Part shown: positions 26,072-60,658 of the stretch, one piece after another
How the letters are laid out: every line of letters begins with the position of its first letter
Numbering within the stretch: position 1 is the first letter of the stretch
DNA from: an uncultured Candidatus Saccharibacteria bacterium
GTDB taxonomy: Bacteria; Patescibacteriota; Minisyncoccia; Phycocordibacterales; UBA1006
Reading direction: 5' to 3'
DNA: 64,000 nt
Assembly (NCBI GenBank): GCA_964464735.1
Contig: CAYXKF010000004.1
Coordinates: 3,929-67,928 of the forward strand
Made by a program: the position numbers and the translations under genes
Notes under the pieces: model-generated
What the model was told of the DNA's origin: nothing
Databases searched by the model: none
Seen by the model: only the letters and a program-made list of their open reading frames with translations

Positions 26072-26117
26072 ATAAAAAATGTCTGTTGGATTTTGAGTTG
26101 TTTACGTAAAAGAAAAA

Positions 26118-26145
26118 CCCGATCCTATGACCGGGCTTTTCTTCG
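26118..26145 (-). terminator. Intrinsic terminator downstream of the sigma-r4/HARE-HTH gene
   Basis: Minus-strand CCCGGUCAUAGGAUCGGGUUUUUCUUUU. Confidence 0.55.
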
Positions 26146-26156
26146 TTTGTCGTGTG

Positions 26157-27203
26157 TTACTTAGTCGTATATCGTCCGTCGTCAAGCTTTTTGAAATACT
26201 TTTGGTTCTGTAGATTTACCAAGATAGTGTTTTTCTTTAGATAGCGTTCTTTCAAAACTTTTTCAATGACTTCTTCTTTGGTAAGTGGGCCTTCGGCTTT
26301 AAGGATATCGGCAATGACTTCGCGTACCACACCTTTTTTATATCCCCATTCGCGAAGCGCATATACGCCGCGGCCAACCAATACAAAACGTTCATCCTTA
26401 ATCAATTCGTTATGGCAGGTTGCAGTATGCACCTTGCGGCCAAAAATCTTTTCGATGGCCTGCGCTACTTCACGAAAGTGCATCGGAGAGCCGTGCTTGC
26501 GCATAACAAGGTATGCATAATCTTTTACGCCGCGAGTTTTTACCGCTGATGAATCAGCATGTCCCCACTCACCTAATGGGTTCGGTGCGATCTTGTTTGA
26601 AAGGTCAAGCCATCGGCGAGCAATATCGCTATTTTTATGTTCATCCTTAATTTTACCTGCATGTTCGTGACCCAAGATTTTTTGCAATACTTCGCCTTCA
26701 GAAATCAGGTCGCCATGCTGAATTGAACTGTGAATATCCTTTAGGATTTTCTTTACTACGTCCGCCGTCTCGCTGTCGACAACCCAATGGGTCTTAAAAT
26801 GTTCGTCATCCTTAACCTTAGCAAATTGATCACCTAAGACCAGGTATAAATGCACATGATTTTGTGTCAGCCGGTCATTCGACATATGGTCAAGCAAATG
26901 TTTTTCCTCGACAACGCCGCCAAGACTGTGCATGATCTCGCCCATCTCGTCAAAAATCTGCTTTGCCTCATTGAATGAGCTTGACTTGCGAATCGCTTGC
27001 AATGCAAAGTTTTCAATTTGGCGTACACGCTCACGGGTTATCTTGTATTCTTGCCCGATTGAATCAAGCGTGCGTCGTTCGCCGTCGCCCTCAAGACCAA
27101 AGCGGTTTACCACAACATAGCGCGAACGGTCCTGGAGGTTACCAAGAAGTTTTTTTGTAAGCTGTTTGGGTTTAAAAGTAAGCGAAGCTTTTTTTGTAGA
27201 CAT
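26157..27203 (-). CDS. DNA-binding protein with a sigma-70 region-4-like HTH followed by a C-terminal HARE-HTH/winged-helix-like domain
   Basis: DSIGQEYKITRERVRQIENFALQAIRK (sigma r4-like); C-terminal GSPMHFREVAQAIEKIF...GVYALREWGYKKG resembles the RNAP delta N-domain/HARE-HTH. Confidence 0.45.
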   Translation of the reverse strand: MSTKKASLTFKPKQLTKKLLGNLQDRSRYVVVNRFGLEGDGERRTLDSIGQEYKITRERVRQIENFALQAIRKSSSFNEAKQIFDEMGEIMHSLGGVVEEKHLLDHMSNDRLTQNHVHLYLVLGDQFAKVKDDEHFKTHWVVDSETADVVKKILKDIHSSIQHGDLISEGEVLQKILGHEHAGKIKDEHKNSDIARRWLDLSNKIAPNPLGEWGHADSSAVKTRGVKDYAYLVMRKHGSPMHFREVAQAIEKIFGRKVHTATCHNELIKDERFVLVGRGVYALREWGYKKGVVREVIADILKAEGPLTKEEVIEKVLKERYLKKNTILVNLQNQKYFKKLDDGRYTTK

Positions 27204-27296
27204 AGTTATTGGCTTTGCAGGTAGCAATGAATAATGTGGTGTAATAAAGACCAAGTCATACTAGCATAACTGACTGTACTGTCAAGTACCCTTATT

Positions 27297-33214: not shown

Positions 33215-33232
33215 AACTTAATTATAGCATTT

Positions 33233-34951
33233 TTATAAAAACTCCTGCTGATAACATTCTTTGCAATAAATCACCGGCGCGCGGTCTTTTTCGTAATGGG
33301 TCCTAAACTGCTTGTTGCAATTATCGCAGGTGCGGTCTTTTAGTCGCATATTATTTACCCATATGCGAAGCTTTGCATCAATACGGCAAAACGGACACTG
33401 GCGCGGAATACAAATGTTTAACTTTCGAAGCAATTGAAGTTCAAGCGGAATAATTTTATATCCTTTTTTGCAATCACTGCATTCGATCGTTTCAGATAAA
33501 ATTGAATCGTCAATATGTGAAATATGATCAAGCACATCAGCAGCTTTTTTGGTAATTGAATATTCACGCTTGCTGTCATCATGTTTCCATCCGCCCATTG
33601 CCAAAACCTGGGCATCAGTCTTTGGATAAAACAAATTGGCAAACGTATGCTGATACGGAAACGGCGCGATCTGCGGCGGAAAAAACTCGCCGTACTTGTA
33701 TACATGCCCATTAGTATCACTGTACGGCATATCATCGATATGCTTGATAATTTTTTCGCGCAAAGCAGTGTATTCATCTTTTGTATACTGTTTGTTAAAA
33801 ATAACGTAATCGCCCTTTCGCGCCGAAACGCATCCAAACTGGTTGCTTCCAGTTATCGCAAGCTTGCAATACGCACTGTCGGTCAGATTGATACCGCTTT
33901 CTTGAACGAACTTCACGTTTGAAGCAAATTCGCCCGTTACCCCGCTTTCATACGCGTTTTCTAGCCCGTATCCAAAGTCGCAAATGTCATAGCAGTTCTT
34001 TTGCGGGGCACGGTACAAGCTAATACAATACTTGCAGTCTTCACAATACGCGCAGTCGTAGCATTCGTGACAGTTTTTTGATTCAAAAATATAACTGCCA
34101 GTGCAATTAACCGACATAGTATCCCACGCCGGACGCGGCACGACGCTTTTCCAAAAATCTTGTGCTTCAGTTTGCGCTTTTTGGTATCCGACATGCGAAC
34201 CTAAGTCATATTGTGCGCGTTTTTCAAGATACGCCTCTTTGGTCAGCTGTTCGTTTTTAAAGCAATAGCTTTTATTTTTTAAGTTCGCACACATAAAACA
34301 ATTGGTGCAGTTTTCACAATCGCGCAAAAAGGCACTGTCGATGCAAAAGCGATTATTGCCGCGGCTTCCTACCACGCGCGAGCTTTTGTACAGGTTCGAG
34401 CAGTCATAACACGCGTCACAGCTCATCACCATCGAACAATCAGAAACATCACGGCACTGCGTCACGTTAAACCCATATTCGCATTCTTGGTTGAAATCGG
34501 TATTGAATGTTAGATAACAATCTTTCAAATCGGCGGCGTGATTATTGTATGGCGAACCAGGAGTCGTCGTCGCATTAATTGAAAGGCCTAACAGTGGTGC
34601 TTGATGCATCAGTTCATCAAACTGTTCGAAAAATGGACGACTAAAATCGTAATCGCGGCCATAATCGCGCCAATCCCAATTGTCAGACCACCAGCATGTC
34701 GGGCAATACACTTTGTACTGCGAGCGTTTATCTTCGCCATTTGGCGGATACATCGAAATGAAGCGCTTACTGCACAAATCGCAGTCACGGTAAAACAAAT
34801 TTACCAAGTTGTACCAAGCGTAGCGGCGCATCCGTCGGCAGTCAGGGCAAAAAGTCGGCGGCGGAACCTGCATTTTTTCGTAAAATCCAAAGTCGTCATC
34901 CTCGATGACAAATGACTTTTTGCAGTTTTGGCAATTTCGCGTTTCGGTCAT
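33233..34951 (-). CDS. Cys-rich zinc-ribbon paralog G (array position 7); start MTETRNCQNCK, with its ATG overlapping the TGA of paralog F (ATGA)
   Basis: Family consensus at both termini (…FYEKMQVPPPTFCPDCRRMRR… / …VIYCKECYQQEFL); internal NKQYTKDEY module. Confidence 0.8.
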   Translation of the reverse strand: MTETRNCQNCKKSFVIEDDDFGFYEKMQVPPPTFCPDCRRMRRYAWYNLVNLFYRDCDLCSKRFISMYPPNGEDKRSQYKVYCPTCWWSDNWDWRDYGRDYDFSRPFFEQFDELMHQAPLLGLSINATTTPGSPYNNHAADLKDCYLTFNTDFNQECEYGFNVTQCRDVSDCSMVMSCDACYDCSNLYKSSRVVGSRGNNRFCIDSAFLRDCENCTNCFMCANLKNKSYCFKNEQLTKEAYLEKRAQYDLGSHVGYQKAQTEAQDFWKSVVPRPAWDTMSVNCTGSYIFESKNCHECYDCAYCEDCKYCISLYRAPQKNCYDICDFGYGLENAYESGVTGEFASNVKFVQESGINLTDSAYCKLAITGSNQFGCVSARKGDYVIFNKQYTKDEYTALREKIIKHIDDMPYSDTNGHVYKYGEFFPPQIAPFPYQHTFANLFYPKTDAQVLAMGGWKHDDSKREYSITKKAADVLDHISHIDDSILSETIECSDCKKGYKIIPLELQLLRKLNICIPRQCPFCRIDAKLRIWVNNMRLKDRTCDNCNKQFRTHYEKDRAPVIYCKECYQQEFL

Positions 34952-36648
34952 AAGTATTCTTGCTGATAACACTGCTTGCAGTAAATAACCGGCGCGCGGT
35001 CTTTGGTGTAAAACGTCTTAAATTCTTTGCCGCATTTATCACACGCACGATCAAGCTGCTGCATGTTTGAAACCCAAATATCGACTTTCTCCCAGATACG
35101 ACAAAACGGGCACGACCGAGGAAGCGGCAACGTATGCTGGCGCAAAAATTGCAACTCTTGCCCAATGACACGAAAACCGCGATTACAGGTACTGCAACCG
35201 ATCACCTCTTGCAAAATAGTGTCGGATGCATCTTTAATGTTGTCAGGCAAATATTTAGCTGCAACCGTAACAGCGTATTCGCGATTTTCGGGTTCGTACC
35301 ATTTTAGGCCCTTTACCTGCACCTGTTCTTTATTAAGTGGAAAAAAACGCGCGGCAAAGCTGTCGTTGTAAAAGTTCGGTGAGAATTCAGGTGGAAAGAA
35401 CTCGCCATATTTATAGACATGCCCTTCTGTACTAATATATGGATTAGCGTCCATGTCTTTCTTAATTTGTTCACGCAGCTTTTCGAATTCTTCTTTACTA
35501 TATTGTTTATTTAAAATCGAATAGTTGTTCTTTTTTAGGCTTACGCACCCAAAATGATGTTCGGCGGTAATTGAAAGCTTTGAATACTGTACATCCAACA
35601 ATCCATGACCTGATTCGTGGGTAAAATAAATATCCTGCGCGCCTTCACCGACCGTTATCGCTTCGTAAATACGATTCGAATTATTTCCCCAGTCGACATA
35701 ATCGTAGCTGTCTTTTACCGGGCCAAACTTGATAAGCATCAAATATTTAGAGTCTTCGGCATACGAAACTGCATAGCATTCTTTGCTATTTTTGCAGTAC
35801 GAAAAATAGCTCCCACTGCTTTTATCGTCTGAAAACAGGTCATAAACCGGCCGCGGTGAATATTTTTTAAAATGATCATAGGCTTTTTTCTTGTATTCTT
35901 GGTATTGGCTGTACGAACCCAAATCTATTTCGGACATCTTTTGCTTGTATTCTTCTTTTGAAAGCTGTTCGTTAAAAAATACATTCGAGGCATGCTGAAG
36001 GTTGATCGAGCCAAAACAATTATTGCAGTCATTGCAGTCGTAACAAAACGTCGTATCGATCGATTTGATCATGCCATGAGAACCGACGACATGAAAGTTA
36101 TCCGACGCCGATACGCAGTCGAAACATTTTTCAGAACCGCTTATAAACGAGCAGTTGAGTACATTTTTATTCTGCGCGCCGTAGAATCCGTATACATGCT
36201 CTTCGCAAAAGTCCGAATAAAACAGCAAATAACAATTTTTCGAATGCCCCACATGATTACAAAATTGCGAGAAATTGCTGGTCGGCTGATCAATCGAAAG
36301 GCCCAACAACGGCGCTTTATGCAAAAGTTCATTCCATTGCTCGAGGAACGGACGCATAGGATCATAATCCATCGCCAAGTCCTTCGCATCCCACTTATCA
36401 GACCACCAGCAGCGATCGCAATACACGACATACGGCGCATCTGGGTGATACATCGAGAACCGCTCTTCGTGACACAGATCACACTTTCGCTTGAAAAGCT
36501 GGATTCCCTTCATCCAAATAAGGCGGCGTTGCAAGCGGCACTGCGGGCAAAATGTCGGCGGAGGAACATTGATTTTTGCGTAAAAATCAAAATCCTCGTC
36601 TTCGATGACGAATGCATTTTTACAATTTTGGCAATTTCGAGTTTCCAT
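34948..36648 (-). CDS. Cys-rich zinc-ribbon paralog F (array position 6)
   Basis: METRNCQNCKNAFVIEDEDFDFYAKINVPPPTFCPQCRLQRR...; C-terminal VIYCKQCYQQEYL; a 2-nt gap follows the upstream paralog's stop. Confidence 0.8.
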   Translation of the reverse strand: METRNCQNCKNAFVIEDEDFDFYAKINVPPPTFCPQCRLQRRLIWMKGIQLFKRKCDLCHEERFSMYHPDAPYVVYCDRCWWSDKWDAKDLAMDYDPMRPFLEQWNELLHKAPLLGLSIDQPTSNFSQFCNHVGHSKNCYLLFYSDFCEEHVYGFYGAQNKNVLNCSFISGSEKCFDCVSASDNFHVVGSHGMIKSIDTTFCYDCNDCNNCFGSINLQHASNVFFNEQLSKEEYKQKMSEIDLGSYSQYQEYKKKAYDHFKKYSPRPVYDLFSDDKSSGSYFSYCKNSKECYAVSYAEDSKYLMLIKFGPVKDSYDYVDWGNNSNRIYEAITVGEGAQDIYFTHESGHGLLDVQYSKLSITAEHHFGCVSLKKNNYSILNKQYSKEEFEKLREQIKKDMDANPYISTEGHVYKYGEFFPPEFSPNFYNDSFAARFFPLNKEQVQVKGLKWYEPENREYAVTVAAKYLPDNIKDASDTILQEVIGCSTCNRGFRVIGQELQFLRQHTLPLPRSCPFCRIWEKVDIWVSNMQQLDRACDKCGKEFKTFYTKDRAPVIYCKQCYQQEYL

Positions 36649-36650
36649 AC

Positions 36651-38399
36651 TTATGCAACTTCTGTCTGATAACACTTCTCGCAGTATATTACTTCTGCGC
36701 GATCTGGCGCATAGGTTGTCTGAAATTCATTTTGGCAATTGCCCATATGACCGTGATTCTCAGCTTTGCACATGCACTGACGATGATAGAGTGCCGGAGG
36801 ATTTCTCCAACCCACACGATCAATATGCCGGCAGTTAAAACATAGACGCGGAAGCGGCAGCTGCGACTGACGGTAAAAATCAAGTTCTTGCTGGGTAATT
36901 TTAAAGGCGCTAGCACAATCAACATTGCAGCCATTTTTATGTCCGTCTAGTTCGTCGTGTTGGCACTGAATCACTTCGTTTATAATCGAATCAGGAACAT
37001 CTTTTATTGAATCAGGTAACTCACTTGCCTTTTTGGTGATCGGATATTTTCGCTCTTCAGGTGTTCGCCAGCGATACCCTTGCTTAGTCGCTTCTTCTTC
37101 GGTAATAGGAAAATATTCAAACGCCTGTGATTGGCTGTATCCGTAAGTAGACATATCAAAAGGGAAAAATTCGCCGAACCGGTAAACTCGCCCTTCTGCA
37201 TCTATATACGGCATATCATCCATATGTTTTTTTATTTTTGGAAGCAAATCAAAGTATTCCTCTTTGGTGTATTGCTTATTTAAAATACAATACGTTTTAT
37301 TGCGCACGCCAATGCACCCAAAAACATTACTGACGCTTTTGCAATTGATTGAATAATATCCGTCACTTATATTTGCGCACTCAAATGTAGCGATTGTTTT
37401 ATGCGCGCCGTTTCCGCAGCAAATCGTCTCGTACGAAAGTTCGGTGCCTTCGCTTGAGGTGATATCCATCCCGTCATTGTTCGGAGGATAGATAACACTT
37501 TGGCAGTATTTCATATTTCGGGCATTGCCTACAAAAAAGCACCGATCAATTTCGCTTGCGTTATTTAAATAGTCTCCAATGCAGCCAGGAGCTTGCACGC
37601 TGTGCTGATATTTAACGGGTGATTTTTCCCAAAAGGTTTCGGCTTTTTTTCGCGCTTCAACAATACCCGACCACGAATCAAGGTTCATTTCGGCAAGCTT
37701 TGCTTTATACGTTTCTTTATCACATGGCTGATTGAAAATATGATAGCTTTTATTTTTCAACCCGCTGCATCCAAAACAGCTGGTACACCCGACACAATCT
37801 TGGGACATCCACACCTCGACGCACGAAACGCAGTTGCGCGAAAAATACGTTTTGAAAGATTGCGTGGTGTTTATACAGTAATAACAGAGTTCAGAATCTT
37901 TTACATTTAATCCGTCAAAACATTTTTTGCTATATAAAAGCGTAACACTGTATGCGCTGTCTTCGTCATAACCCGAATCAAAACACAGATAACAATTTTT
38001 TGAATACCCACATACTGCATAGCTGCAATTCACCATTTCCATAGACCACATAATTCCCCATGGCACGACAGCATAGAAATCGCGAACTTGGTCGAAAAAT
38101 GGCCGTGAAAAATCGTAATCACGCCCGTAATCCATGGCATCCCACTTATCACTGTTCCAGTATTCATTACTATACACCGGCATTGGATTTTCAGGCGGCA
38201 TCAATGTAAATATTTTTTCACCAGTTGCAGCGCACGTGCGAGCATACAAATGGCGCATGTCGCGAAAACTCATACGACGGATCGCACGGCATTTCCAGCA
38301 AAATGTCGGCGGGGGTACCTTTATTTTTTCGTAGAATAAAAAGTCATCAGGCTCGATCGTAAATTGCAGTTTACAGTTTTGGCACGCTCGGGTTTCCAT
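36651..38399 (-). CDS. Cys-rich zinc-ribbon paralog E (array position 5)
   Basis: METRACQNCKLQFTIEPDDFLFYEKIKVPPPTFCWKCRAIRR...; C-terminal VIYCEKCYQTEVA. Confidence 0.8.
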   Translation of the reverse strand: METRACQNCKLQFTIEPDDFLFYEKIKVPPPTFCWKCRAIRRMSFRDMRHLYARTCAATGEKIFTLMPPENPMPVYSNEYWNSDKWDAMDYGRDYDFSRPFFDQVRDFYAVVPWGIMWSMEMVNCSYAVCGYSKNCYLCFDSGYDEDSAYSVTLLYSKKCFDGLNVKDSELCYYCINTTQSFKTYFSRNCVSCVEVWMSQDCVGCTSCFGCSGLKNKSYHIFNQPCDKETYKAKLAEMNLDSWSGIVEARKKAETFWEKSPVKYQHSVQAPGCIGDYLNNASEIDRCFFVGNARNMKYCQSVIYPPNNDGMDITSSEGTELSYETICCGNGAHKTIATFECANISDGYYSINCKSVSNVFGCIGVRNKTYCILNKQYTKEEYFDLLPKIKKHMDDMPYIDAEGRVYRFGEFFPFDMSTYGYSQSQAFEYFPITEEEATKQGYRWRTPEERKYPITKKASELPDSIKDVPDSIINEVIQCQHDELDGHKNGCNVDCASAFKITQQELDFYRQSQLPLPRLCFNCRHIDRVGWRNPPALYHRQCMCKAENHGHMGNCQNEFQTTYAPDRAEVIYCEKCYQTEVA

Positions 38400-38401
38400 A
38401 T

Positions 38402-40078
38402 CTATACCATTTCTTGTTGATAACATTTTTCACAATACACTTTTTCAAGCCGATCTGGCGCATACGCCGTATCAAATTCATTTGAGCAATTTCCAACATG
38501 TGCGTGATTTGTTTTATTACACATACATTTGCGATGATAAAGCAAGCGAGGCAGCCGCACTGCCATTCGTTCGTCGTGCCGACAAAAGAAACACTTTGTA
38601 GGCAATGCAAGCCTGAAGCGCTCATAAAAAGAAATTTCATGATTAATAAACCGGTAATTGCGCTTACATGCTTGGCAGGCAAAAATCTTGTCTTTTAAAA
38701 ATTCCCAATTGTATATTTGTGCAGGCAGTAATGAATCAAGCAAGCAATTTTCTTGCCCTTTAGTATCAGGAATATTATCCTCCCATCGATAGCCGAACGC
38801 CAGGGCCTGATCTTTGGTAAGCGGATAGTATTCACCAACGGTCGACTCGTTATATGCATAGGGGGAAATAGCAATTGGAAAGTATTCTCCCCATTCCCCA
38901 TTCTGCTTCATATGTTCGATTATTTTTGGAACCATTATTTCATATTCTTCTTTTGTATATTGCTTGTTTAAAATACAATAATCTTTTTTACGAAGCCCTA
39001 CACATCCAAAAAGGTTGTTCGAATTGAAACAAGCCTCTGAATATGTTGTATCTGTGCAGTCAATAGCTAAGTGGCAGAACTTCAGTCCATATGGTTGCGA
39101 GAAAAGGCACTCGTATGAGTTTTCAATATCAAGTGAAAAGCCGCAATCATAGCTGTTTATGAATTTGCGCACAGTAAATCCAAATTTGCTGTCTTCTCCT
39201 GATTTAACATCAAATGCCCAGTGGACATTTTTTGCGTGATAAACATGATTTCCGCTTGCAGCTACGTTGTGCGAACCAAACATGTGAGGCGTAGGAACTT
39301 CTTGCATCAACGCATCACGCTGACTCAAGATATGCTGAAGCACCTTCGGATCAGATAAAGGATACTCACTTAAGAATTTTTGGTACTCCTCCTTAGTAAC
39401 TTGCTTATTGAAAATATGATAACTTTTATTTCGAAGTCCAACACATCCGATGCAATTAACACATCCACGGCAATCAAACAAAGCGATCGAATCAGTGCAC
39501 GCCTCACATTCGCGGCAATACAGCAGTCGAGTAGACTCTAATACATCAATGCATTGGTAACAGTATTCAGACTTAAACAAATACAGGCAGTCGACCGATT
39601 CGCGACAATTCCATACTGAATGACTATAGTCACAATCTTCATTATCAACGCATCCAAATACGAAGTAACAGCGAGCGCTCCTGTTGCATAAATTGGAAAA
39701 TCCACAGTCGGTACTGTTGTTCACCATCAATGAGAAGCGGGGTACTTGGTCGTTTAATTCTTTATACTGTTCAAAAAAAGGGCGTGCGAAATCAAAATCG
39801 CGACCGTAACTCGTAGCATCCCAATCGTCTGCATACCATTCTTCGGTACTCCACACTGGAAAGGGCTGTCGTTCATGATACATCGAAATAATGGCCTTTC
39901 CCGATTTAGACGATGGCCGGCGATATAATGTCCTGAAATTTCTAACAAACAACCGACGAATCTGTCGGCATTTAGGACAATGGGTAGGAGCCGGCACTTG
40001 CATCTTTTCGTAAAACAAAAAGTCGTCCGGTGTTATTTGAAAATTTTGATTGCATTTTTTGCAGACCTTGATTTCCAT
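38402..40078 (-). CDS. Cys-rich zinc-ribbon paralog D (array position 4)
   Basis: MEIKVCKKCNQNFQITPDDFLFYEKMQVPAPTHCPKCRQIRR...; C-terminal KVYCEKCYQQEMV. Confidence 0.8.
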   Translation of the reverse strand: MEIKVCKKCNQNFQITPDDFLFYEKMQVPAPTHCPKCRQIRRLFVRNFRTLYRRPSSKSGKAIISMYHERQPFPVWSTEEWYADDWDATSYGRDFDFARPFFEQYKELNDQVPRFSLMVNNSTDCGFSNLCNRSARCYFVFGCVDNEDCDYSHSVWNCRESVDCLYLFKSEYCYQCIDVLESTRLLYCRECEACTDSIALFDCRGCVNCIGCVGLRNKSYHIFNKQVTKEEYQKFLSEYPLSDPKVLQHILSQRDALMQEVPTPHMFGSHNVAASGNHVYHAKNVHWAFDVKSGEDSKFGFTVRKFINSYDCGFSLDIENSYECLFSQPYGLKFCHLAIDCTDTTYSEACFNSNNLFGCVGLRKKDYCILNKQYTKEEYEIMVPKIIEHMKQNGEWGEYFPIAISPYAYNESTVGEYYPLTKDQALAFGYRWEDNIPDTKGQENCLLDSLLPAQIYNWEFLKDKIFACQACKRNYRFINHEISFYERFRLALPTKCFFCRHDERMAVRLPRLLYHRKCMCNKTNHAHVGNCSNEFDTAYAPDRLEKVYCEKCYQQEMV

Positions 40079-40080
40079 AA

Positions 40081-41811
40081 TTACATGACTTCTTTTTGAT
40101 AGCACTGTTCACAATAGACTTTTTCGAGCCGATCAGGTGCATAGGATGTTTCAAATTGATGTTGGCATACACCCTGATGATCATGATTTGGCAGATCGCA
40201 CATACATTTTCGGATCCACAGATGCATTGAGTTTCTCCACCCTACTCGCTCAAAATGCCGGCAGTTCGGACACAAAGTCGGCAAAGGCAGCTTCTTTTGT
40301 TTCAAAAATTGTAACTCGTCGGGGGTAATTTTAAACGCTGTGGTGCATTGATACCCGCATTCACCCTTATGCGCACATTCAATCACCTGACCAAAAATGT
40401 CTTCACTAACGGCATTAATATCATTCGGTATCTGATTGTTTAGCATTGTAATAGCATATGTTCGTTTTTCGCGCGGTTTCCACGGATACCCTTTCTCGCT
40501 TGCAATTGCTTCGGTAATCGGGAAATAATCCTGTACGACACTTTCGTTATACGTAAACGGGCAAAATTCATACGGAAAATATTCCCCGTATGCATACACG
40601 CGCCCTTTTGCATCCACATACGGCATATCGTTCATATGCTTGATCAGTTTCGGAACCAGTTCTTCGTATTCTTCTTTAGTATACTGCTTGTTTAAAATGC
40701 AATACTGCGCATTTTTTATGTTCGAGCACCCAAAACAATCCGAACAGTTGCGGCACAGCGCCGAATATTTCATGTTTTTTGAAGTCAGGCAGATAAAGCT
40801 TGCCAACGCGCCGTAACTTTGAATACTACATGCCACGCCTTCGTACTCAAGCTCACCGGTTAAAATACCATAACAATCGTAACAGTCTTTGCAGCTTAAT
40901 ATGCGGTTTCCGTTTGAAACATTTTCGCTGTTTTGCACATCAAACGAATTATGCACCATGCGCGAATTGTTGATAAAATCTCCGGTCGCATCCTGCGAGT
41001 TTACAATATTCGAATATTTCACCACCGAATTTTTGCACAATTCTTCAAATCGTTTTTTTGCCTTTTCAAGACCTTCTCGCGTATGAAGCTGCAGTTCATC
41101 AAACCGTTTTTTATATTCTTCTTTTGTCAGCTGCTGATTTTCAAAAATATACGACTGCTTTCGGATATTGGTACTTAAACAGCAGTTTTGGCAGTTTGCA
41201 CTGTTGGCAACAAAGTACGAATCAATGCAGCTTTGCGAACGAATCGCATAGTGACAGTTAAAATTACCCAGACAATCCACATTCCACGAACAATTATCCA
41301 ATTGCTGGGCACCAAGGCAGTCAAACGAATTTTTAGACTTATCAATATTTTCAGAATACTGAATATCTTCGCAGCCGATGACCGAAAACGCCAGGTATAC
41401 ATTTTTATTATCAAGCGTGTAGTTGCTGTAATCGCTGTTTACCAATGTTCCGCCGCGATACTGATAATTGCGCGGAGTCTTTTTAAACAAATCATTGAAT
41501 TGCTGCAAAAAAGGAACATTCCAATCAATGTCCATCGCATATGTCTTTGCATCCCATCCGTCGCCCATCCAGCATTCGTGGCAATATACTGGACAGAGAT
41601 CAGCGTCAGAATACATGCCGATGCTCATTTTTCCACATAGTCCGCACGGGCGCCGATACAACGACCGTACATTACGCCAAAGCATACGGCGAATACGCCT
41701 ACATTCAGGGCAGAATGTTGGATGCGGAACCTTTATTTTTTCAAGAAAAGAAACCTCATCATGAGTGACGATAAATGATTCTTTGCAATTTTGGCATTTT
41801 TTGGTTTCCAT
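40081..41811 (-). CDS. Cys-rich zinc-ribbon paralog C (array position 3)
   Basis: METKKCQNCKESFIVTHDEVSFLEKIKVPHPTFCPECRRIRR...; C-terminal KVYCEQCYQKEVM. Confidence 0.8.
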   Translation of the reverse strand: METKKCQNCKESFIVTHDEVSFLEKIKVPHPTFCPECRRIRRMLWRNVRSLYRRPCGLCGKMSIGMYSDADLCPVYCHECWMGDGWDAKTYAMDIDWNVPFLQQFNDLFKKTPRNYQYRGGTLVNSDYSNYTLDNKNVYLAFSVIGCEDIQYSENIDKSKNSFDCLGAQQLDNCSWNVDCLGNFNCHYAIRSQSCIDSYFVANSANCQNCCLSTNIRKQSYIFENQQLTKEEYKKRFDELQLHTREGLEKAKKRFEELCKNSVVKYSNIVNSQDATGDFINNSRMVHNSFDVQNSENVSNGNRILSCKDCYDCYGILTGELEYEGVACSIQSYGALASFICLTSKNMKYSALCRNCSDCFGCSNIKNAQYCILNKQYTKEEYEELVPKLIKHMNDMPYVDAKGRVYAYGEYFPYEFCPFTYNESVVQDYFPITEAIASEKGYPWKPREKRTYAITMLNNQIPNDINAVSEDIFGQVIECAHKGECGYQCTTAFKITPDELQFLKQKKLPLPTLCPNCRHFERVGWRNSMHLWIRKCMCDLPNHDHQGVCQHQFETSYAPDRLEKVYCEQCYQKEVM

Positions 41812-41813
41812 GG

Positions 41814-43559
41814 TTATGATACTTCTTGCTGATAGCAGTGCTCGCAGTATACCTTTTCAGGGCTATCTGGTGAATAGGTCGTCTTGAAAGTGTTAGCGCA
41901 CGCGCCGATATGGTGCGGATGATCCTTCTTGCAATCGCATGTGCGCTGCCATAATTGCATCGGGTTTCGATATTTTAACCGAGCCGCGTGTCGGCAATTT
42001 GGGCAAAGACGTGGCAATGGTAAATTCATCTGGCGGTAAAATTGCAATTCAGCAGGAATAATCTTAAAAGCGGTGGCACACTGTTCGTTGCATGTTCCGC
42101 CATGGTCACACGCGATCACTTCGTTTACGATCGAATCAGGCACTTCGGCAATCGTCTTAGGCAAATTGCGTGCCTCAATTGTTGTTTGATAATTGCGTTT
42201 TGCATCTTCGTACCATCGATATCCTTTCATCAATGCTTCCGCTTTAGTTAAAGGAAATAATTCTTGAGCCGTAGTCTCGTTATACGCAAAAGGACTAAAC
42301 TCGATTGGAAAAAATTCACCATATTTATATATCAAGCCAGCAGAATCAATATAAGGAATTTCATTCATGTGATTTACAAACTTTTGTCGCAAATTTGCGT
42401 ATTCTTCTTTTGTGTACTGAATATTAAAGATACAGTACTGGCGTTTATTAAGCCCTACGCAAGCGAAACAATCTTGGCAACTAGTACAAAACAGGCAGTA
42501 TTCAAGATTGCGACAGTTCGTAATCGCCCACTGACACATACGAATGTTGGAAGTCTGATCACCTCCTTGAAATACCTCATACATCAAAGACGAATTTGCT
42601 CCGAAGTTTGCAAAGTCATAGGTATCGGTTATTTTTCCAGTAACAAAACTGCAGTATCGGCAATCCTCCATTTCAAACCCAATAAAGCAATTCTTAGCGT
42701 TTTTCGTATCATTCAAATAATCCCCTGTTGATTCTATGTTGCGCCATCCATGGGTATACTTTTGAGGAAAATCTCTCCAGAAAGTTTTAGCATCCACCTG
42801 TATCTTCGCAATAGATTCGCTTGAGCCATCAAATAATTCACGAACTTTCTTTTCGTATGAATCTTTATCATACGGCTGATTAAAAATATGATAACTTTGT
42901 TTTTTGAGATTCACGCATCCGAAACAATTATTGCACCCACTGCAATTTTTCGAGAACCAAACATCCGTACAGCTTTCACAATCAACACTATAAAATGTTC
43001 TATAACATTGATTGCAATTGATGGTCTGATAGCATAATTCAAGCTGGTTACCCATGAGGTTATCAACACTATCTTTGCTGTGATTGATAAAGCTTCCATA
43101 CGTAATATTTTCGCAATAATCACTATAGGTCACCAAATAGCAATTCTTAAGCCAACTTGCCATATTAGTATATTCGGAATTTATTTTAGTCGAGTAGAGT
43201 CCATACAAATTCATCGCCGGAACCGTTTTAAAAAGCGCTTGCAGTTGAGCAAGTATTGGCTTACTTTCGTCAAAAGTATAAGGATAATCCAGTCCATCCC
43301 AAGAATCGCTCCACCAACATTCTGAGCAGTAATTTATAAGACCTGATTCGGGTGACAAAACAGTAATTATCTGCTTGTGACATTTTTCACATTCACGGCG
43401 ATAAAAAGTTCGCTCATTGCGGCGAGCAAGACGACGAATCAACCGGCACTGCGGACAAAATGTCGGAGGCGGAACCTTTATTTTCTCGTAAAACGAAAAG
43501 TCATCAGGCTCGATGGTAAAAGAATTCTTGCAGTTTTGGCACGAACGCGTTTCGGTCAT
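41814..43559 (-). CDS. Cys-rich zinc-ribbon paralog B (array position 2); its ATG overlaps the TGA of paralog A (ATGA)
   Basis: MTETRSCQNCKNSFTIEPDDFSFYEKIKVPPPTFCPQCRLIRR...; C-terminal KVYCEHCYQQEVS. Confidence 0.8.
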   Translation of the reverse strand: MTETRSCQNCKNSFTIEPDDFSFYEKIKVPPPTFCPQCRLIRRLARRNERTFYRRECEKCHKQIITVLSPESGLINYCSECWWSDSWDGLDYPYTFDESKPILAQLQALFKTVPAMNLYGLYSTKINSEYTNMASWLKNCYLVTYSDYCENITYGSFINHSKDSVDNLMGNQLELCYQTINCNQCYRTFYSVDCESCTDVWFSKNCSGCNNCFGCVNLKKQSYHIFNQPYDKDSYEKKVRELFDGSSESIAKIQVDAKTFWRDFPQKYTHGWRNIESTGDYLNDTKNAKNCFIGFEMEDCRYCSFVTGKITDTYDFANFGANSSLMYEVFQGGDQTSNIRMCQWAITNCRNLEYCLFCTSCQDCFACVGLNKRQYCIFNIQYTKEEYANLRQKFVNHMNEIPYIDSAGLIYKYGEFFPIEFSPFAYNETTAQELFPLTKAEALMKGYRWYEDAKRNYQTTIEARNLPKTIAEVPDSIVNEVIACDHGGTCNEQCATAFKIIPAELQFYRQMNLPLPRLCPNCRHAARLKYRNPMQLWQRTCDCKKDHPHHIGACANTFKTTYSPDSPEKVYCEHCYQQEVS

Positions 43560-45247
43560 AAGACTTCTTTTTGATAACACTGTTCGCAATATACTTTTTC
43601 AGTTCGGTCAGGAGCATACGCACTTTCGAATTGATTAACGCATTTTCCTGCATGGTCGTGACCTTCTTGTACGCACGAGCAAGAACGAGTGTAAAGTTTT
43701 CGGGGCAAACGCAAGCTAATACGCACTTTTTCACGGCAATCAGCACAGTTACGAGGAAGTGGAACTTTTTCGCGCTTATAAAACACCAATTCGTCAGGAA
43801 TAATATTAAAGTTTTTAGTGCATGTTTCACAAGTAAAAATATTTGAAATATACTCATCCGTAATATCTGCAATACTATCGGGTACGTCTTGCATTGTTAC
43901 CGTACCTTTTCCGAAAACCCCAGGAATTTTTTCTTCCCACTGCCAACCCCGAGCCAAAACTTCTTCTTTTGAAAGCGGCATGTATATTGCCCCGCGTGTC
44001 TCGTTGTAGTAAACAGGGGCGATTGACGGCGGAAAATATTCACCATATTCACCGGTCGATTTCATGTGTTCAATAATCCTTGCTTTCAATGCTTCGTATT
44101 CTTCTTTTGAATACCTTTTATTAAAGATCATATACTCGCCTTTTTTAACCGATACACACCCAAAAAGATTCTGGCTATTCTGGCACGAATCACAATACTG
44201 CAGATGCGAGTTGTCATAACACAAATGGCAAAATTGCAAATTATATGCGCGTACGCAGCCATGCAATTCATAGCAACCCTCGGATTTTATTCCGGCGTGA
44301 TAAATATCCATCGAATCCGAAATACCCAAAGTGCCGTAAATGTTTTTACTATCTTCGCTTTTATCACATTCGTATCCCTGTAAAACATTTTTACAATTAA
44401 AAAGAAGGTTTCCAACAGACGAAACTGTGCGCTCGCCCTGCATATATTTATGAATGGCATCGTACAGCATCATTTCCTTAAACTCATTAAACAACTGCAC
44501 TCGGACCGAATGTTTTGAAAGGTCGTACTGTTTTACTTTCTCTTGGTACTCTTCTTTCGTTAGTTGCCGGTTTTTAAAAATATAATGTCCGCCGCGGATA
44601 TTACACGAAAGAAAACAATCGCTTGATCCGCTTACGTCATAACAATAGAAGCAGTTTGATGAGTTGTTAAGCAAAAGGCAGTATTGCGACTGATACGAAT
44701 ACTGACTATCAATACATTCGTATAAGCGTTCGCCTTTTTCATAAATCCATCCACAATCACAACAGTCGCGCGAATTCATCGTCCAATTGCAATACGAAAC
44801 ATTTTCACTGGTAAACGTGGCAAAACAAATGTAAGCATTTTTATTTTCTCCACAGTGATTCGTATATTCAGAATTAATACTATTTTTTGTAAGTAGTGCC
44901 ATACGCGGAACTTCGTGTTGCAAGGCCGAGAATTGTTCGAAAAATGGTTTTGAAAAATCAAAATCACGGCCATAGGCTGCAGGATCCCAGGCGTCTCCCC
45001 ACCAGCAGGATACGCAGTACACTTTATAGGGCTTGTTTGGAGAATAAATCGTTACTGTGCTTTTTTTGCACAAATCGCATTCGCGACGATATAACGTTCG
45101 CTCGTTTCGGTATGCATACCGGCGCTGTTGACGACAATCACGGCACCACTGTGGCGCCGGTACCCCTATTTTTTCATAAAATGCAAAATCATCATCCGCG
45201 ATTTCGAATGAGTTTTTGCAATTCTGACAAATCTTGGTTTCGGCCAT
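43556..45247 (-). CDS. Cys-rich zinc-ribbon paralog A (array position 1, promoter-proximal)
   Basis: MAETKICQNCKNSFEIADDDFAFYEKIGVPAPQWCRDCRQQRR...; C-terminal KVYCEQCYQKEVL. Confidence 0.8.
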   Translation of the reverse strand: MAETKICQNCKNSFEIADDDFAFYEKIGVPAPQWCRDCRQQRRYAYRNERTLYRRECDLCKKSTVTIYSPNKPYKVYCVSCWWGDAWDPAAYGRDFDFSKPFFEQFSALQHEVPRMALLTKNSINSEYTNHCGENKNAYICFATFTSENVSYCNWTMNSRDCCDCGWIYEKGERLYECIDSQYSYQSQYCLLLNNSSNCFYCYDVSGSSDCFLSCNIRGGHYIFKNRQLTKEEYQEKVKQYDLSKHSVRVQLFNEFKEMMLYDAIHKYMQGERTVSSVGNLLFNCKNVLQGYECDKSEDSKNIYGTLGISDSMDIYHAGIKSEGCYELHGCVRAYNLQFCHLCYDNSHLQYCDSCQNSQNLFGCVSVKKGEYMIFNKRYSKEEYEALKARIIEHMKSTGEYGEYFPPSIAPVYYNETRGAIYMPLSKEEVLARGWQWEEKIPGVFGKGTVTMQDVPDSIADITDEYISNIFTCETCTKNFNIIPDELVFYKREKVPLPRNCADCREKVRISLRLPRKLYTRSCSCVQEGHDHAGKCVNQFESAYAPDRTEKVYCEQCYQKEVL

Positions 45248-45275
45248 AGCAGTAGTGCCAGTATACTCTTTTGCT

Positions 45276-47009
45276 TTATGAATTCAACGCGACAAACCAA
45301 TTAGGATTGCTATTGAAAATATAACTAAACCAGGCGCGCATGACTTCGGTCGCCGGAAAGGCCCCTACTTTAGGCCCGTGTTCAAGCAATACCACAAACG
45401 CATATTTTGGTTCTTCATACGGGAAAAATCCCACCACCCACGAATTAAGTTGTGAATTATTTTTACCAACCTGCGCAGTACCCGTTTTTGCCGCAATGTG
45501 GACAAATGGGAAATTAAGATTTTTTGCAGTGCCTGCGGTAACCGTTTGGCGCATCGCGTCTTTGATGACCTGATAATTCTGTGCGCTGATATTTTTATCG
45601 ACTGCTATTGATTCTTGTTTTTCAAATTCGGGAACTAAGATCGGTTTTACCAGTGTACCGTCGTTTGCAATAGCAGCAATGCCACGAAGCATCTGCAGCG
45701 GTGTCACCTGAAAACCAAAATGTCCGATACCGCTAATGTAGGTGTCTCCAAGCCGCCAGGTCCCATCCTTGAAAGTTTTTGCCTTCCATTCCGGCGAAGG
45801 AATAACGCCATTTTTTTCGTCACCAAGCGAAATGCCAGTTTTTTGCGCGATACCAAACAGTGACGAATATTCTTCGATACCGGCAATGCCGATTCCTTTT
45901 TGACTTTTATATCCGCCGGTAATTTCGTAAAAATACGTGTTTACTGAATCTGCAATCGCATGATAAATATTGGTAGTGCCATGTCCTTCGGGACGCCAGT
46001 CCTTAAAGATAGACGAAAGCGAAGCGTTATACGGGTTAGGAATTTCAAGTTTACCGCTTGAATACACCGTCGTTTGCGGGGTCACCACACCTTCGTTTAG
46101 CGCGCCGAGTGCAATAAACGGCTTCATGACCGAACCTGGCGTATATAAGCCCGACACCATGCGGTTTAAAAAGTAATTTTTGTTTGAGGTAAGCATCGTT
46201 TGCAGCCGATCACTATTGCCGCCTTGCGTAACCAGCAACGGATCAAATTCGGGATAGCTGGTCAAAATAAGCAGCTCGCCGGTTTGTACATCCATGACGG
46301 CACCGGCACCGCCACCATAGCCTGACGCATCAACAACACGCGCGATTTCTTGCGCCATGTGCGTTTGCAAATCAGCATCAATCGACAACGTTATGTTGTT
46401 GCCCGCAACAGCAGGTTCGGCAACGTGTGAATTTTGGCTTTCACCACCCACGTCGGTTTCGACGATCGTGTAACCGTTAGTACCCGAAAGCTGCTTGTTA
46501 TAAATTTTTTCAATGCCAGTTTCGCCGATTGTTTCGGTACGCCAAAAAAAACCCTTGTCATCGACTTCGGGAAGCCGCACATATCCTAAAATATGCGCAA
46601 ACCCAGGTAGCGTACCATAGGTTCGCGTTGGAACTTCGATGCTTGCAAGCGTGCCATCCTGCCCTTTGCGTTCAAGCGTTGTCATTGCGTTCCATGCCAA
46701 TGGTTTTTGATTGCGATCAAAAATAACGCCACGCGGAGCAAACACAATAGTGCGATCAAAACGGTTTGATTGTGCAATGCGCTGGTACTCTTTTTTATCG
46801 GCAATCTGTAACCATAGCGTACGCAAAAAAAGTAACGCAAAAATAACCGCGCATACGCCCAGCGCGATCTTTACCGCACCATGGATCGGCCGTTCGATTG
46901 ATCCTTCCATACGGTCATGTTCGATGTTGCTGATGTTTACGTCATCGTACAAAAAATGGTCAGGCAACACTTCGCGGCGCATTCGTTTTTTACCAAAAAA
47001 AGAAAGCAT
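45276..47009 (-). CDS. mrdA: Penicillin-binding protein 2 (class B transpeptidase)
   Basis: N-terminal TM anchor; transpeptidase motifs GSVMKPF (SxxK) and KTGTAQV (KTG). Confidence 0.85.
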   Translation of the reverse strand: MLSFFGKKRMRREVLPDHFLYDDVNISNIEHDRMEGSIERPIHGAVKIALGVCAVIFALLFLRTLWLQIADKKEYQRIAQSNRFDRTIVFAPRGVIFDRNQKPLAWNAMTTLERKGQDGTLASIEVPTRTYGTLPGFAHILGYVRLPEVDDKGFFWRTETIGETGIEKIYNKQLSGTNGYTIVETDVGGESQNSHVAEPAVAGNNITLSIDADLQTHMAQEIARVVDASGYGGGAGAVMDVQTGELLILTSYPEFDPLLVTQGGNSDRLQTMLTSNKNYFLNRMVSGLYTPGSVMKPFIALGALNEGVVTPQTTVYSSGKLEIPNPYNASLSSIFKDWRPEGHGTTNIYHAIADSVNTYFYEITGGYKSQKGIGIAGIEEYSSLFGIAQKTGISLGDEKNGVIPSPEWKAKTFKDGTWRLGDTYISGIGHFGFQVTPLQMLRGIAAIANDGTLVKPILVPEFEKQESIAVDKNISAQNYQVIKDAMRQTVTAGTAKNLNFPFVHIAAKTGTAQVGKNNSQLNSWVVGFFPYEEPKYAFVVLLEHGPKVGAFPATEVMRAWFSYIFNSNPNWFVALNS

Positions 47010-47011
47010 AG

Positions 47012-47293
47012 CTATACGTACAAATCGTCGCTGTTATATCCACCAATTTGTGAAGCGATAAATGCAAGCACTGCCCATACAAGACATGCACCGCCAAACC
47101 AAATGATGCGTTCGCCAAAGTGCAAACCAGGATACATGCGAATGATCATGATGGTCGCAATGATAACACTTTCGGGATACCCGCGGAACACAAAAATGCC
47201 CAACACCAAAAGCACTGCAACCCACCACCATGGCGCAAATACCGATGCGATCAAAATGCCAATGGTCGCAATAATGCGCATATTATTTTGCAA
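47012..47293 (-). CDS. Small membrane protein (93 aa), unknown function
   Basis: Three predicted hydrophobic helices; tightly packed between mrdA and gdh. Confidence 0.4.
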   Translation of the reverse strand: MQNNMRIIATIGILIASVFAPWWWVAVLLVLGIFVFRGYPESVIIATIMIIRMYPGLHFGERIIWFGGACLVWAVLAFIASQIGGYNSDDLYV

Positions 47294-48536
47294 GCGTGCC
47301 GCGCAGCTGTTCGGCTTCGACGATACGTTTTACCGCAACAATCATTGCCGCTTCGCGAAGGGTAACGTTATGCGTTCGCGCTGTTGCCATAACGGCGCGC
47401 GTTGATTCGGTCATGATTTTCTGTAGTCGCGCGTCGATGTCGGCCAATCCCCAGCGGTCGGCGTTTTGGTTTTGTACCCATTCAAAATAACTGACCGTCA
47501 CACCGCCGGCATTTGCCAGCACGTCAGGAAGCACGGCAACCGATTTTTGCGCCAAGATTTCGTCAGCCTCGAACGACGTCGGATTGTTGGCTAATTCAAG
47601 AATGACCGATGCTTGGATCGACTGTGCGTTTGCCTTTGTGATCACTCCATCAAGTGCCGACGGTACCAGCACATCACAAGCTTCGGTCAGCAGCTCTTGG
47701 TTTGTGATGTGTGTTCCATACGAATCTGGAATTGCCGCAATCGATCCATATTCTTCTTTAAGCTGGCGCACCAATCGCGGGTCAAGGCCGTTTTGGTTTA
47801 TTAAAGCTCCCGACGAATCCGACACACCCACAATAACGCATTCCATATCGTGCAATGATTCAGCAACAAAGTAACCCACGTTTCCAAACCCCTGCACAAT
47901 CACGCGCTTGCCCGCAAGGGCGATATTTTCTTCGGCAAAGTAGGTTTGCAAACAATATGCCCCACCCTTACCGGTTGCCGATTCGCGCCCCAAGCTTCCG
48001 CCCAATGCAATAGGCTTTCCGGTGAAAGCTCCTGGTTCATGACGATCGACCGTTTTTTCGTATGCATCAAGCATCCATGCCATGATCTGCCCGTTGGTGT
48101 AGACATCGGGCGCAGGAATATCCTTATGCACGCCAATGTACGGCGCCATTAAGCGCGCCCATTCGCGCGAAACTGCCTGCAATTCGTTTTGAGAATATTT
48201 TTTCGGGTCAATAGTAACTCCACCCTTACCACCACCTAATGGAATATCAACAACTGCGGTCTTGATCATCATGCCAGCCGCAAGTGCTTTTACTTCGTTT
48301 TCATTTGCCTCGGGATGGAAACGGATACCGCCTTTAAATGGGCCACGCGCGTCGTTAAATTGCACGCGATAGGCATGAAACGATTCTTGTTTGCCGTCAT
48401 CACGCGTGATCGAGATCGTATCGGTGATAGTGCGCTTCGGGGTCGAAAGCGTTGCAGTGACCGAGTCGTCGTATCCCAAGATTTTTGCCGCCTTGGTAAT
48501 AGTGTGTACGATGTTTGCAAATGGATCGTATGACAT
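47283..48536 (-). CDS. gdh: Glu/Leu/Phe/Val dehydrogenase (glutamate dehydrogenase-like)
   Basis: Substrate-site IPLGGGKGG motif and a C-terminal Rossmann fold. Confidence 0.85.
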   Translation of the reverse strand: MSYDPFANIVHTITKAAKILGYDDSVTATLSTPKRTITDTISITRDDGKQESFHAYRVQFNDARGPFKGGIRFHPEANENEVKALAAGMMIKTAVVDIPLGGGKGGVTIDPKKYSQNELQAVSREWARLMAPYIGVHKDIPAPDVYTNGQIMAWMLDAYEKTVDRHEPGAFTGKPIALGGSLGRESATGKGGAYCLQTYFAEENIALAGKRVIVQGFGNVGYFVAESLHDMECVIVGVSDSSGALINQNGLDPRLVRQLKEEYGSIAAIPDSYGTHITNQELLTEACDVLVPSALDGVITKANAQSIQASVILELANNPTSFEADEILAQKSVAVLPDVLANAGGVTVSYFEWVQNQNADRWGLADIDARLQKIMTESTRAVMATARTHNVTLREAAMIVAVKRIVEAEQLRGTLAK

Positions 48537-48559
48537 AAACGTTATGATGCTATAAATAA

Positions 48560-51082: not shown

Positions 51083-51211
51083 ATTAGTCGAGCATACCAC
51101 GCATATAAGCAATTACAATATTGCCAAATGGGGCTTTTGAATTCGATTTATAATACATGCACAGCGCTTGTTGGAAGCCTAAATATGTATTACAATGAGT
51201 GTTCGACCGAA

Positions 51212-51295
51212 AAGCCCCTTCTAGGATCAGCGATCGCACTCACATAGGACGTTTGTTGTGGAGCTCGCCATCGCTGATCACTTGAGGGGGTTTTT
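51212..51295 (+). promoter_or_regulatory. Long imperfect hairpin in the secA/doxX divergent intergenic region (arms built on GATCAGCGAT), followed by GGGGGTTTTT; candidate leader/attenuator or sRNA terminator
   Basis: CCCCTTCTAGGATCAGCGATCGC ... GCCATCGCTGATCACTTGAGGGGGTTTTT is read directly. Confidence 0.35.
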
Positions 51296-51355
51296 ATATG
51301 CATCATTTTTTGTGTATGCTATACTGCCCATTATTTGTAAGCATAATGTATAGAT

Positions 51356-51793: not shown

Positions 51794-51805
51794 TTTTTCA
51801 TCGCA

Positions 51806-51840
51806 AACAAAAAAACCGGCATTCGCCGGTTTTTTTGTTT
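51806..51840. terminator. Bidirectional intrinsic terminator between doxX and the RRM-protein gene
   Basis: AAAAAAACCGGC-ATTC-GCCGGTTTTTTTG. Confidence 0.85.
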
Positions 51841-51849
51841 TAGGGCTAC

Positions 51850-60651: not shown

Positions 60652-60658
60652 ATATATG

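Follow-up and report, generated by a model that had tools for sequence, protein, structure and literature searches.

The stretch of DNA analysed in this study (the window; 64,000 nt, positions 3,929 to 67,928 of contig CAYXKF010000004.1 in GenBank assembly GCA_964464735.1, an uncultured Candidatus Saccharibacteria bacterium) carries at 33233-45247 a tandem array of seven cysteine-rich paralogous genes. These genes belong to a large, undescribed multigene family that is restricted to Patescibacteria, from which every named source comes, and the family is genomically linked to orphan ATPases of the VirD4/HerA type. As a tentative explanation, which we favour while placing it below even chances, the family would consist of non-enzymatic, zinc-stabilised binding proteins serving as clients or adaptors of the linked ATPases.

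Organisation of the array

According to the listing of open reading frames (ORFs), 33233-45247 was filled by seven successive minus-strand ORFs. Starts were set at a conserved methionine located 4-6 residues ahead of the first CxxC motif and present in every copy. The seven genes, and an eighth copy elsewhere in the window, were as follows:

43556-45247, minus strand: paralog A, 563 aa, the first gene of the array; an identical protein is present in a public collection
41814-43559, minus strand: paralog B, 581 aa; ATGA overlap of its start codon with the stop codon of A
40081-41811, minus strand: paralog C, 576 aa; the B/C gap is 2 nt
38402-40078, minus strand: paralog D, 558 aa; the C/D gap is 2 nt
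36651-38399, minus strand: paralog E, 582 aa; the D/E gap is 2 nt
34948-36648, minus strand: paralog F, 566 aa; the E/F gap is 2 nt
33233-34951, minus strand: paralog G, 572 aa, the final gene of the array; ATGA overlap with F
35-1783, minus strand: paralog H, the eighth copy, ~580-592 aa with an uncertain start; 582 bits against the family profile

A preliminary description of the window, made from its sequence alone, had reported seven consecutive minus-strand paralogs, and these proved real: pairwise identity among the seven proteins was 30-48% (F/G closest at 48%, B/E second at 44%), and each gene scored 580-1000 bits against a single family profile hidden Markov model (HMM), far above chance. 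The junctions were also as reported there, with ATGA overlaps at A/B and F/G and gaps of exactly 2 nt at the remaining four. The reported length range of 563-591 aa was corrected to 558-582 aa, the longest-ORF starts (GTG, TTG or ATG, 7-10 codons upstream) having been used for some genes; public gene calls were looked up for A, E and G and agreed with our lengths, the exact products of all three being present in the public protein collection. The seven-gene array is not the full set of the window, since paralog H lies outside it, 31 kb away and directly downstream of rplU (1830-2240). A TATACT hexamer stands immediately ahead of the ATG of H and may be its own promoter or mark a leaderless start.

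Direct DNA repeats in the array had a period of ~1.68-1.77 kb and an identity of just 60-86% over short conserved motifs, which speaks against recent tandem duplication or gene conversion, and both were rejected. A mobile element or transposase was likewise rejected, given that nuclease or transposase domains and terminal repeats were absent and that tandem 2-nt junctions do not fit such an element.

Protein architecture and cysteine sites

The proteins are composed, in order, of an N-terminal zinc-ribbon pair, β-solenoid 1 and a helix, β-solenoid 2 and a helix, an α/β linker and a C-terminal zinc-ribbon pair. Comparison with hhalign matched the N-terminal module (residues 9-84 of paralog E) to the C-terminal module (495-580) with a probability of 99.7% (E-value 2.8e-25) and solenoid 1 (122-238) to solenoid 2 (270-389) with a probability of 99.9% (E-value 2.3e-37), and a control comparison of the N-terminal module with solenoid 1 gave no match. 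Judged by these profiles, the two terminal ribbon pairs are homologous and the two solenoids are duplicated. AlphaFold2 (AF2) models of E (predicted local distance difference test score, pLDDT, 87; predicted template modelling score, pTM, 0.88) and of the divergent paralog A (pLDDT 90.8, pTM 0.89) were alike along the whole chain. Both begin with two small β-ribbon/helix zinc modules, helices, a strand-rich solenoid and a helical hairpin, and continue with a second, better-defined solenoid, a long helix, the α/β linker and two zinc modules, thereby depicting each family protein as a single rigid body of duplicated parts. The C-terminus is modelled as a structured ribbon (VYCExCYQxEV), unlike a typical charged disordered tail.

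Cysteine conservation was assessed in an alignment of 185 family members from ~80 genomes, using the numbering of E. Invariant cysteines were C6/C9/C34/C37, C479/C495/C520/C523 and C542/C555/C573/C576, so that the family has three invariant Cys4 sites plus an optional fourth; D has lost the second N-terminal ribbon (no cysteine in residues 51-95), and in E this ribbon is degenerate. The pattern C6-x2-C9 ... F22Y23 ... P29-P31 ... C34-x2-C37-R38 was kept in at least 85-95% of the 185 members and recurs in the C-terminal module, and the further positions with at least 95% conservation were mainly aromatic or structural. Both solenoids close with the same cap motif, FGC.GLRNK.Y.I.N.qYtKEEY. Neither a catalytic motif nor enzyme homology was found in the family. 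An iron-sulphur protein was considered and rejected, as the CxxCxxCxxC run of solenoid 1 is not conserved among the paralogs.

Column entropy was ~1.1-1.9 bits at the termini and 2.3-2.9 bits in the solenoids, in line with the conserved termini and diverged middle regions noted previously. Cysteine content had been put at ~9-10%, and the measured value was 5.1-7.2% (29-41 cysteines per protein, 3-16 per solenoid module); the many CxxC pairs of the earlier account were borne out, with 10-18 such motifs per protein. Its N-terminal motif needed a correction of spacing to CxxC-x12-FYEK-x3-P-x-PT-x-CP-x-CR, because the 20-25 residues given there are the distance between both CxxC pairs. No signal peptide was seen, as had been stated: there was no hydrophobic N-terminus and no transmembrane (TM) segment (maximum KD19 1.37). 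The proteins are predicted to be soluble and cytoplasmic, and zinc sites are predicted from the Cys4 patterns together with the AF2 ribbons. The isoelectric point (pI) was 5.6-6.4; the first and third ribbons were basic in most paralogs, and the solenoids were acidic.

Searches against known families

The statement that the array belongs to no characterised family held across Pfam, NCBIfam, PADLOC, PHROGs, the Protein Data Bank (PDB), fold searches and the literature. Nothing in Pfam or NCBIfam was above threshold for the paralogs. The best match to zf_Tbcl (PF13451) reached 19.5 bits (E-value 9.8e-4), under the gathering threshold of 24 bits, and 11 of 70 members gave such sub-threshold matches; zf_Tbcl_2 (PF23477) matched D and A at 13.7-14.1 bits, under its gathering threshold of 27 bits, and 5 of the 70 members overall. 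These matches fall exactly on the terminal ribbons, where the family shows the same kind of patterns, CxxC ... FY ... P.P..C..CR and R.C..C ... vYC..CY. However, both are small domains of unknown function that explain less than 30% of a family protein, and the solenoids and the linker match no family.

A PADLOC scan of the eight paralogs returned two chance-level partial matches only (E-value ~0.01). In the PDB, a single-protein sequence search gave nothing significant (best E-value ~0.8, a poxvirus capping-enzyme subunit) and a profile search gave no match; fold searches returned generic β-solenoid resemblance only, and full-text literature searches found no description of the family; an eLife paper on conflict systems proved to have no bearing on it. 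Weak matches to phrog_15341 (PHROGs; phage proteins, function unknown) were observed in both solenoid modules of A, B, C, D and G (E-values 3.5e-5 to 1.4e-2).

Several familiar classes were compared directly. The genes abut, with no interleaved small ORFs and no toxin domain, which is not the layout of polymorphic toxins or effector-immunity pairs. The chains begin directly with a zinc ribbon and KD19 does not exceed 1.37, unlike secreted adhesins or curli. A hexapeptide repeat signature with a significant fold match, as in left-handed β-helix transferases or γ-carbonic anhydrases, was not found. Metallothionein-like stores have roughly 15-30% cysteine, mostly conserved ligands; in the family, cysteine makes up 5.1-7.2% and just 12 cysteines are conserved family-wide.

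The likeness to β-solenoid proteins (left-handed β-helix acyltransferases, γ-carbonic anhydrases, insect antifreeze proteins, CsgA and bactofilin) reaches the fold-class level only. Unlike these, the family has no Hexapep match and no active-site residues, is predicted to be cytoplasmic, is capped by zinc ribbons and has a solenoid repeat of its own, ending FGC.GLRNK.Y.I.NkqYtKEEY. The component folds, treble-clef ribbons and a β-solenoid, are familiar. The family, its architecture and the ATPase-plus-array cluster described below match nothing described in the libraries and literature searched, a status that is not in itself proof of a new mechanism. Two zinc-ribbon pairs capping a duplicated β-solenoid form a new domain architecture, which no solved structure matches.

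Family size and distribution

A word-indexed search returned more than 7,400 matches, and the named sources were all Patescibacteria (Nomurabacteria, Staskawiczbacteria, Liptonbacteria, Paceibacterota and Parcubacteria). An exhaustive profile search gave 5,278 clusters at 50% identity, of which 2,219 had an E-value of at most 1e-30; the best 150 of the 5,278 clusters were nearly all of ~550-600 aa with an end-to-end profile match, together with some shorter partial sequences. No family member was found on viral contigs in a scan of IMG/VR.

Genomic context was examined in a family-seeded set of 80 species-representative genome loci of at most 21 kb each. Many of the loci studied came from groundwater datasets such as those of Hainich and Rifle. 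These held 1-9 copies per locus, frequently in same-strand arrays, and loci seeded with an ATPase (see below) held up to 11 family genes per 21 kb. Of 102 adjacent same-strand family pairs, 34 were separated by at most 10 nt and 12 of those overlapped. The family occupies 14 kb of the 64-kb window and up to ~19 kb of one 21-kb locus elsewhere. Patescibacteria genomes are ~1 Mb in size, and the single complete chromosome among the loci (L009) is 808 kb long. With so large a share of the genome and the strong purifying selection reported below, the cells pay heavily for a family that no database describes.

Gain and loss between strains was visible in near-identical Staskawiczbacteria contigs, where an indel removes two family genes and an AbiEii gene (L004 12855-17854 compared with L005 and L088). 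In L005 and L088 one family gene is broken into ORFs of 335 and 195 aa and is therefore probably a pseudogene. In another genome (L001, 8254-11749), two family genes lie between adk/AA_kinase and map at the end of a ribosomal-protein/secY operon, and a fused gene of the third ATPase form described below is found 2.4 kb downstream of the pair.

Linkage to VirD4/HerA-like ATPases

The dominant neighbour in the family-seeded loci was a P-loop ATPase matching TrwB_AAD_bind, TraG-D_C, T4SS-DNA_transf and DUF87. Forty-two such genes were found within 4 kb of family genes in 29 of 81 loci, often at a distance of 3-25 nt. Among loci of at least 18 kb, 17 of 36 hold a VirD4-like ATPase, so family genes occur both within and outside ATPase clusters. 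This link escaped the preliminary description and is visible only in other genomes.

Three forms of the ATPase were distinguished. The short form is of ~490 aa and ends in AEPLI or EPMI. The long form, of 600-830 aa, has a zf_Tbcl_2 finger C-terminal to its ATPase domain and then a long K/E-rich tail whose end motif is conserved; the finger passes the Pfam threshold (E-value 2e-12, 46-47 bits) and matches the ribbon modules of the family. The third form, of 800-920 aa, is fused to an N-terminal domain of ~450 aa (N-dom) that occurs as a free-standing membrane protein as well. The long ATPase ends in PGETVKF or EVPEDVLRKILE (L004, L038, L047, L079, L113 and others), and its tail is probably disordered. 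To judge from their sequences, the conserved tail peptides look like docking motifs.

As a reciprocal test, a metagenome scan was seeded with the short ATPase, which had a mean identity of 74% among 18 genomes, and 80 loci were returned (L088-L167). Family genes were present in 65 of the 80, and the loci without them were mostly short contigs. A recurrent one-strand layout was observed, which begins with (secDF), a Sigma70_r4/HARE-HTH gene, a 174-aa TM protein (TM174), N-dom and the long ATPase and continues with 3-5 family genes, CutA1, the short ATPase and another 4-5 family genes. Relatives of the window paralogs (47-65% identical) sit inside these clusters at assorted positions. In a 2025 survey, 5,713 VirD4-type homologues were counted in 2,918 Patescibacteria genomes, just 148 of them near virB4, and exaptation of these orphan homologues was proposed (PMC12102498). 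With about two VirD4 homologues per genome, the linkage observed here is far above chance.

CutA1 (PF03091, E-value 1e-14; 101 aa) was present in 37 of the 80 ATPase-seeded clusters, mostly 15-200 nt upstream of the short ATPase. This neighbour, with the 29-41 cysteines per protein, might suggest that the family and CutA1 together store or buffer zinc or copper, or take part in thiol redox chemistry. We regard that idea as very unlikely, because the 12 family-wide cysteines form classic structural Cys4 sites, the solenoid cysteines vary in number, a cysteine content of 5-7% is far under metallothionein levels and the window itself has no CutA1.

Evolution and selection

Paralogs A-E are each closer to a protein of another genome than to any member of their own array. 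The closest outside relatives were 70% identical for A, 54% for B, 55% for C (L068), 52% for D and 74% for E, and identity within their own array was at most 44%; orthologs of E in other Patescibacteria were 66-75% identical. F and G, which share common outside relatives (~50%) and are 48% identical to each other, constitute a younger duplicate pair. On these identities, the array paralogs are anciently diverged.

No fixed order or composition was found in arrays elsewhere. Across eight large clusters, the median identity was 40.1% at the same position, 39.5% at different positions and 39.2% within a locus; reciprocal best hits linked merely 3-7 of 8-10 genes between clusters, and one subtype was steadily conserved (65-81%). 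These data bear on a self-contained hetero-oligomer or polymer, in which the paralogs would co-assemble, for instance head-to-tail through their ribbon modules, into a cytoplasmic filament, cage or scaffold, with the ATPases as assembly factors at most. Such an assembly would suit coupled junctions that favour equimolar synthesis, termini that are conserved and mutually homologous and a window array that stands alone. However, a copy number of 1 to at least 11 per locus, the lack of positional orthology, the few reciprocal best hits and the insertion or deletion of members between strains all argue against it, and we consider it unlikely. The suggestion of a hetero-oligomer of seven was weakened in particular, as variable, unordered array content argues against a fixed hetero-oligomer; a fixed seven-subunit complex was rejected on the same ground.

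Selection was estimated against a syntenic contig of a related organism (L087), which carries RRM, DoxX, SecA, GDH, an 89-aa ORF, PBP2, A and B. Paralog A was 95.6% identical to its ortholog with a ratio of nonsynonymous to synonymous substitution (dN/dS) of 0.040, and B was 96.6% identical to a partial ortholog with a dN/dS of 0.048. The family is therefore strongly constrained and not diversifying, which weakens the earlier suggestion of a diversifying family, as does the ancient divergence of the paralogs, with A-E closer to other genomes than to their own array. The flanking SecA, GDH and PBP2 were 84-88% identical to their counterparts, and their synonymous sites were saturated (proportion of synonymous differences, pS, 0.75-0.79 vs 0.29-0.39 in A/B). 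Nucleotide identity between 42543-52100 of the window and 1-9705 of L087 was 66-83% in the flank and 88-97% in the array, with one 78% patch within the array at 44343-44642. Between these two genomes, the array is far younger than the genes around it, and recent homologous exchange of the array is the likeliest cause of the mosaic identity.

Mosaicism of this kind, which resembles recombination, might be expected of a conflict or variation repertoire, that is, variable sensors or effectors of a HerA-driven defence or inter-bacterial conflict system, or an antigenic-variation set. The linked ATPases do match the PADLOC HerA and mad8 models (E-values 1e-12 to 1e-14), and Staskawiczbacteria loci interleave AbiEii, Fic, HTH_17 and MerR genes with family genes and show strain indels. 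We nevertheless hold this reading to be highly improbable: the paralogs are ancient, with a dN/dS of 0.04-0.05; the family proteins gave no credible PADLOC match and contain neither a nuclease nor a toxin domain; small immunity genes are not interleaved with the family genes, and no member was found on viral contigs; the short ATPase is highly conserved; and the window array lies among housekeeping genes.

The same purifying selection would also be expected of housekeeping nucleic-acid binders, whose basic treble-clef ribbons would bind RNA or DNA in translation- or chromosome-related roles that do not involve the ATPases. In most of the seven paralogs, ZnR1 and ZnR3 have a net basic charge and Arg-rich helices come after them, housekeeping operon sites are occupied by H after rplU and by the two L001 copies, and dnaK, dnaJ and grpE are recurrent neighbours of the family. 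Nevertheless, 8-11 diverged copies with strain-level gain and loss are unexpected for a housekeeping factor, the proteins are net acidic, and no known nucleic-acid-binding family was matched beyond the sub-threshold zinc-finger matches. This role is thus distinctly unlikely.

Proposed role of the family

In the explanation that we tentatively favour, the family proteins would be non-enzymatic, zinc-stabilised binding or scaffold modules that hold on to one shared partner through their conserved ribbon termini and owe their paralog-specific specificity to the more variable faces of the solenoids. The shared partner would be the pair of soluble VirD4/HerA-superfamily ATPases, short and long, which most related genomes encode within the arrays along with CutA1 and a membrane protein; the family would then form a set of clients (cargo) or adaptors on which this ATPase motor acts.

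A number of observations weigh against this explanation. About half of the well-flanked family loci elsewhere have no ATPase, which means that family members can be encoded apart from it, and no VirD4-like ATPase, CutA1, TM174 or SecDF was found within the 64-kb window. Gene linkage is not equal to interaction, and the binding, transport and zinc content proposed here are predictions from sequence. Matches of the ATPases to the Pfam models of type IV coupling proteins (T4CPs) are weak (E-values 1e-5 to 1e-15), and the ATPases are without the TM anchor that true coupling proteins have at the N-terminus. It is unusual for secreted cargo to contain folded zinc ribbons. AbiE and Fic genes stand next to some of the clusters and point to a conflict role instead. 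According to a transposon-sequencing (Tn-seq) result on Ca. Southlakia, as far as it is relayed in PMC12102498, the t4cp homologue is non-essential.

A stronger version of the explanation takes the family to be the clients that have been missing for the orphan VirD4-like ATPases, with N-dom, the two ATPases and CutA1 as a machine that translocates or deploys it. The machine would then recognise the zinc-ribbon termini and deliver ten or more β-solenoid proteins into host cells or to the cell surface, with every solenoid face adapted to a target of its own. We do not consider this version probable. If true, the episymbiotic lifestyle would rest on these clients, which would make up a new class of Sec-independent cargo.

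Comparison with T4CPs (VirD4/TrwB/TraG) gives both likeness and difference. The linked ATPases match the four domain models named above, and T4CPs bind Sec-independent cytoplasmic clients, the family proteins likewise being without signal peptides. On the other hand, the linked ATPases lack the anchor, no relaxase or known effector signal is present, the Patescibacteria homologues are far from virB4 (PMC12102498), the window has no ATPase and the status of the family as clients is purely conjectural. FtsK/HerA-type motors, such as EssC with its substrate arrays in type VII secretion systems (T7SS) or those of HerA-effector defence, offer a further analogy, as a conserved hexamer-type P-loop ATPase stands in a one-strand paralog array of variable length. 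It is an analogy only, for the family clusters have no WXG100/LXG, no Sir2 or nuclease partner and no homology to known substrates.

The linkage ties the family to ~5,700 orphan VirD4-like ATPases that the 2025 survey could place in no system (PMC12102498). It also turns the question of the role of these ATPases into predictions on pairwise binding, zinc content, localisation and co-occurrence.

Window context and expression

Outside the array, the following features of the window were related to the clusters of other genomes or to expression:

24629-25888, minus strand: N-dom homolog, a 419-aa membrane protein with ~30% identity to the ~450-aa N-dom
26157-27254, minus strand: Sigma70_r4 and HARE-HTH gene, which in clusters of other genomes is conserved to the left of the N-dom gene
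45260-45287, minus strand: sigma-70-type promoter candidate TTGAAT-16-TATACT, 13 nt ahead of the ATG of A and partly within the 28-nt spacer between PBP2 and A

The N-dom homolog is possibly a remnant of an ATPase-cluster context, and the Sigma70_r4/HARE-HTH gene is context and not necessarily part of the system. This pair of genes (24629-27254) is followed by YceG.

The co-directional string of genes extends past the array in both directions, with a gap of 28 nt to PBP2 and of 18 nt to ribokinase. The preliminary description had viewed the array as one coupled polycistronic unit; its junctions stand, and tight pairs are common elsewhere, whereas a single transcript and coupling are only consistent with the data. 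Between 32200 and 47400, 35 promoter-like sites were counted vs 37±6.9 in shuffled controls, and 20 terminator-like sites vs 17.4±4.3, so neither kind of site was commoner inside the array than in shuffled sequence. The spacer with the candidate promoter, the only one upstream of A, is conserved in L087, and the regional count of such sites is at chance level. No clear Shine-Dalgarno sequence was found ahead of the internal array starts. This arrangement is naturally read as termination-reinitiation at the ATGA and 2-nt junctions, and the array would probably be transcribed as one unit.

Rfam and tRNA scans gave nothing near the array, and the only RNA genes detected in the window were two tRNA-Ser genes on the minus strand (CGA, 52461-52548; GGA, 60658-60743). 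The 18-nt spacer between G and ribokinase (33215-33232) has a perfect TATAAT, located 7 nt upstream of the ATG of ribokinase.

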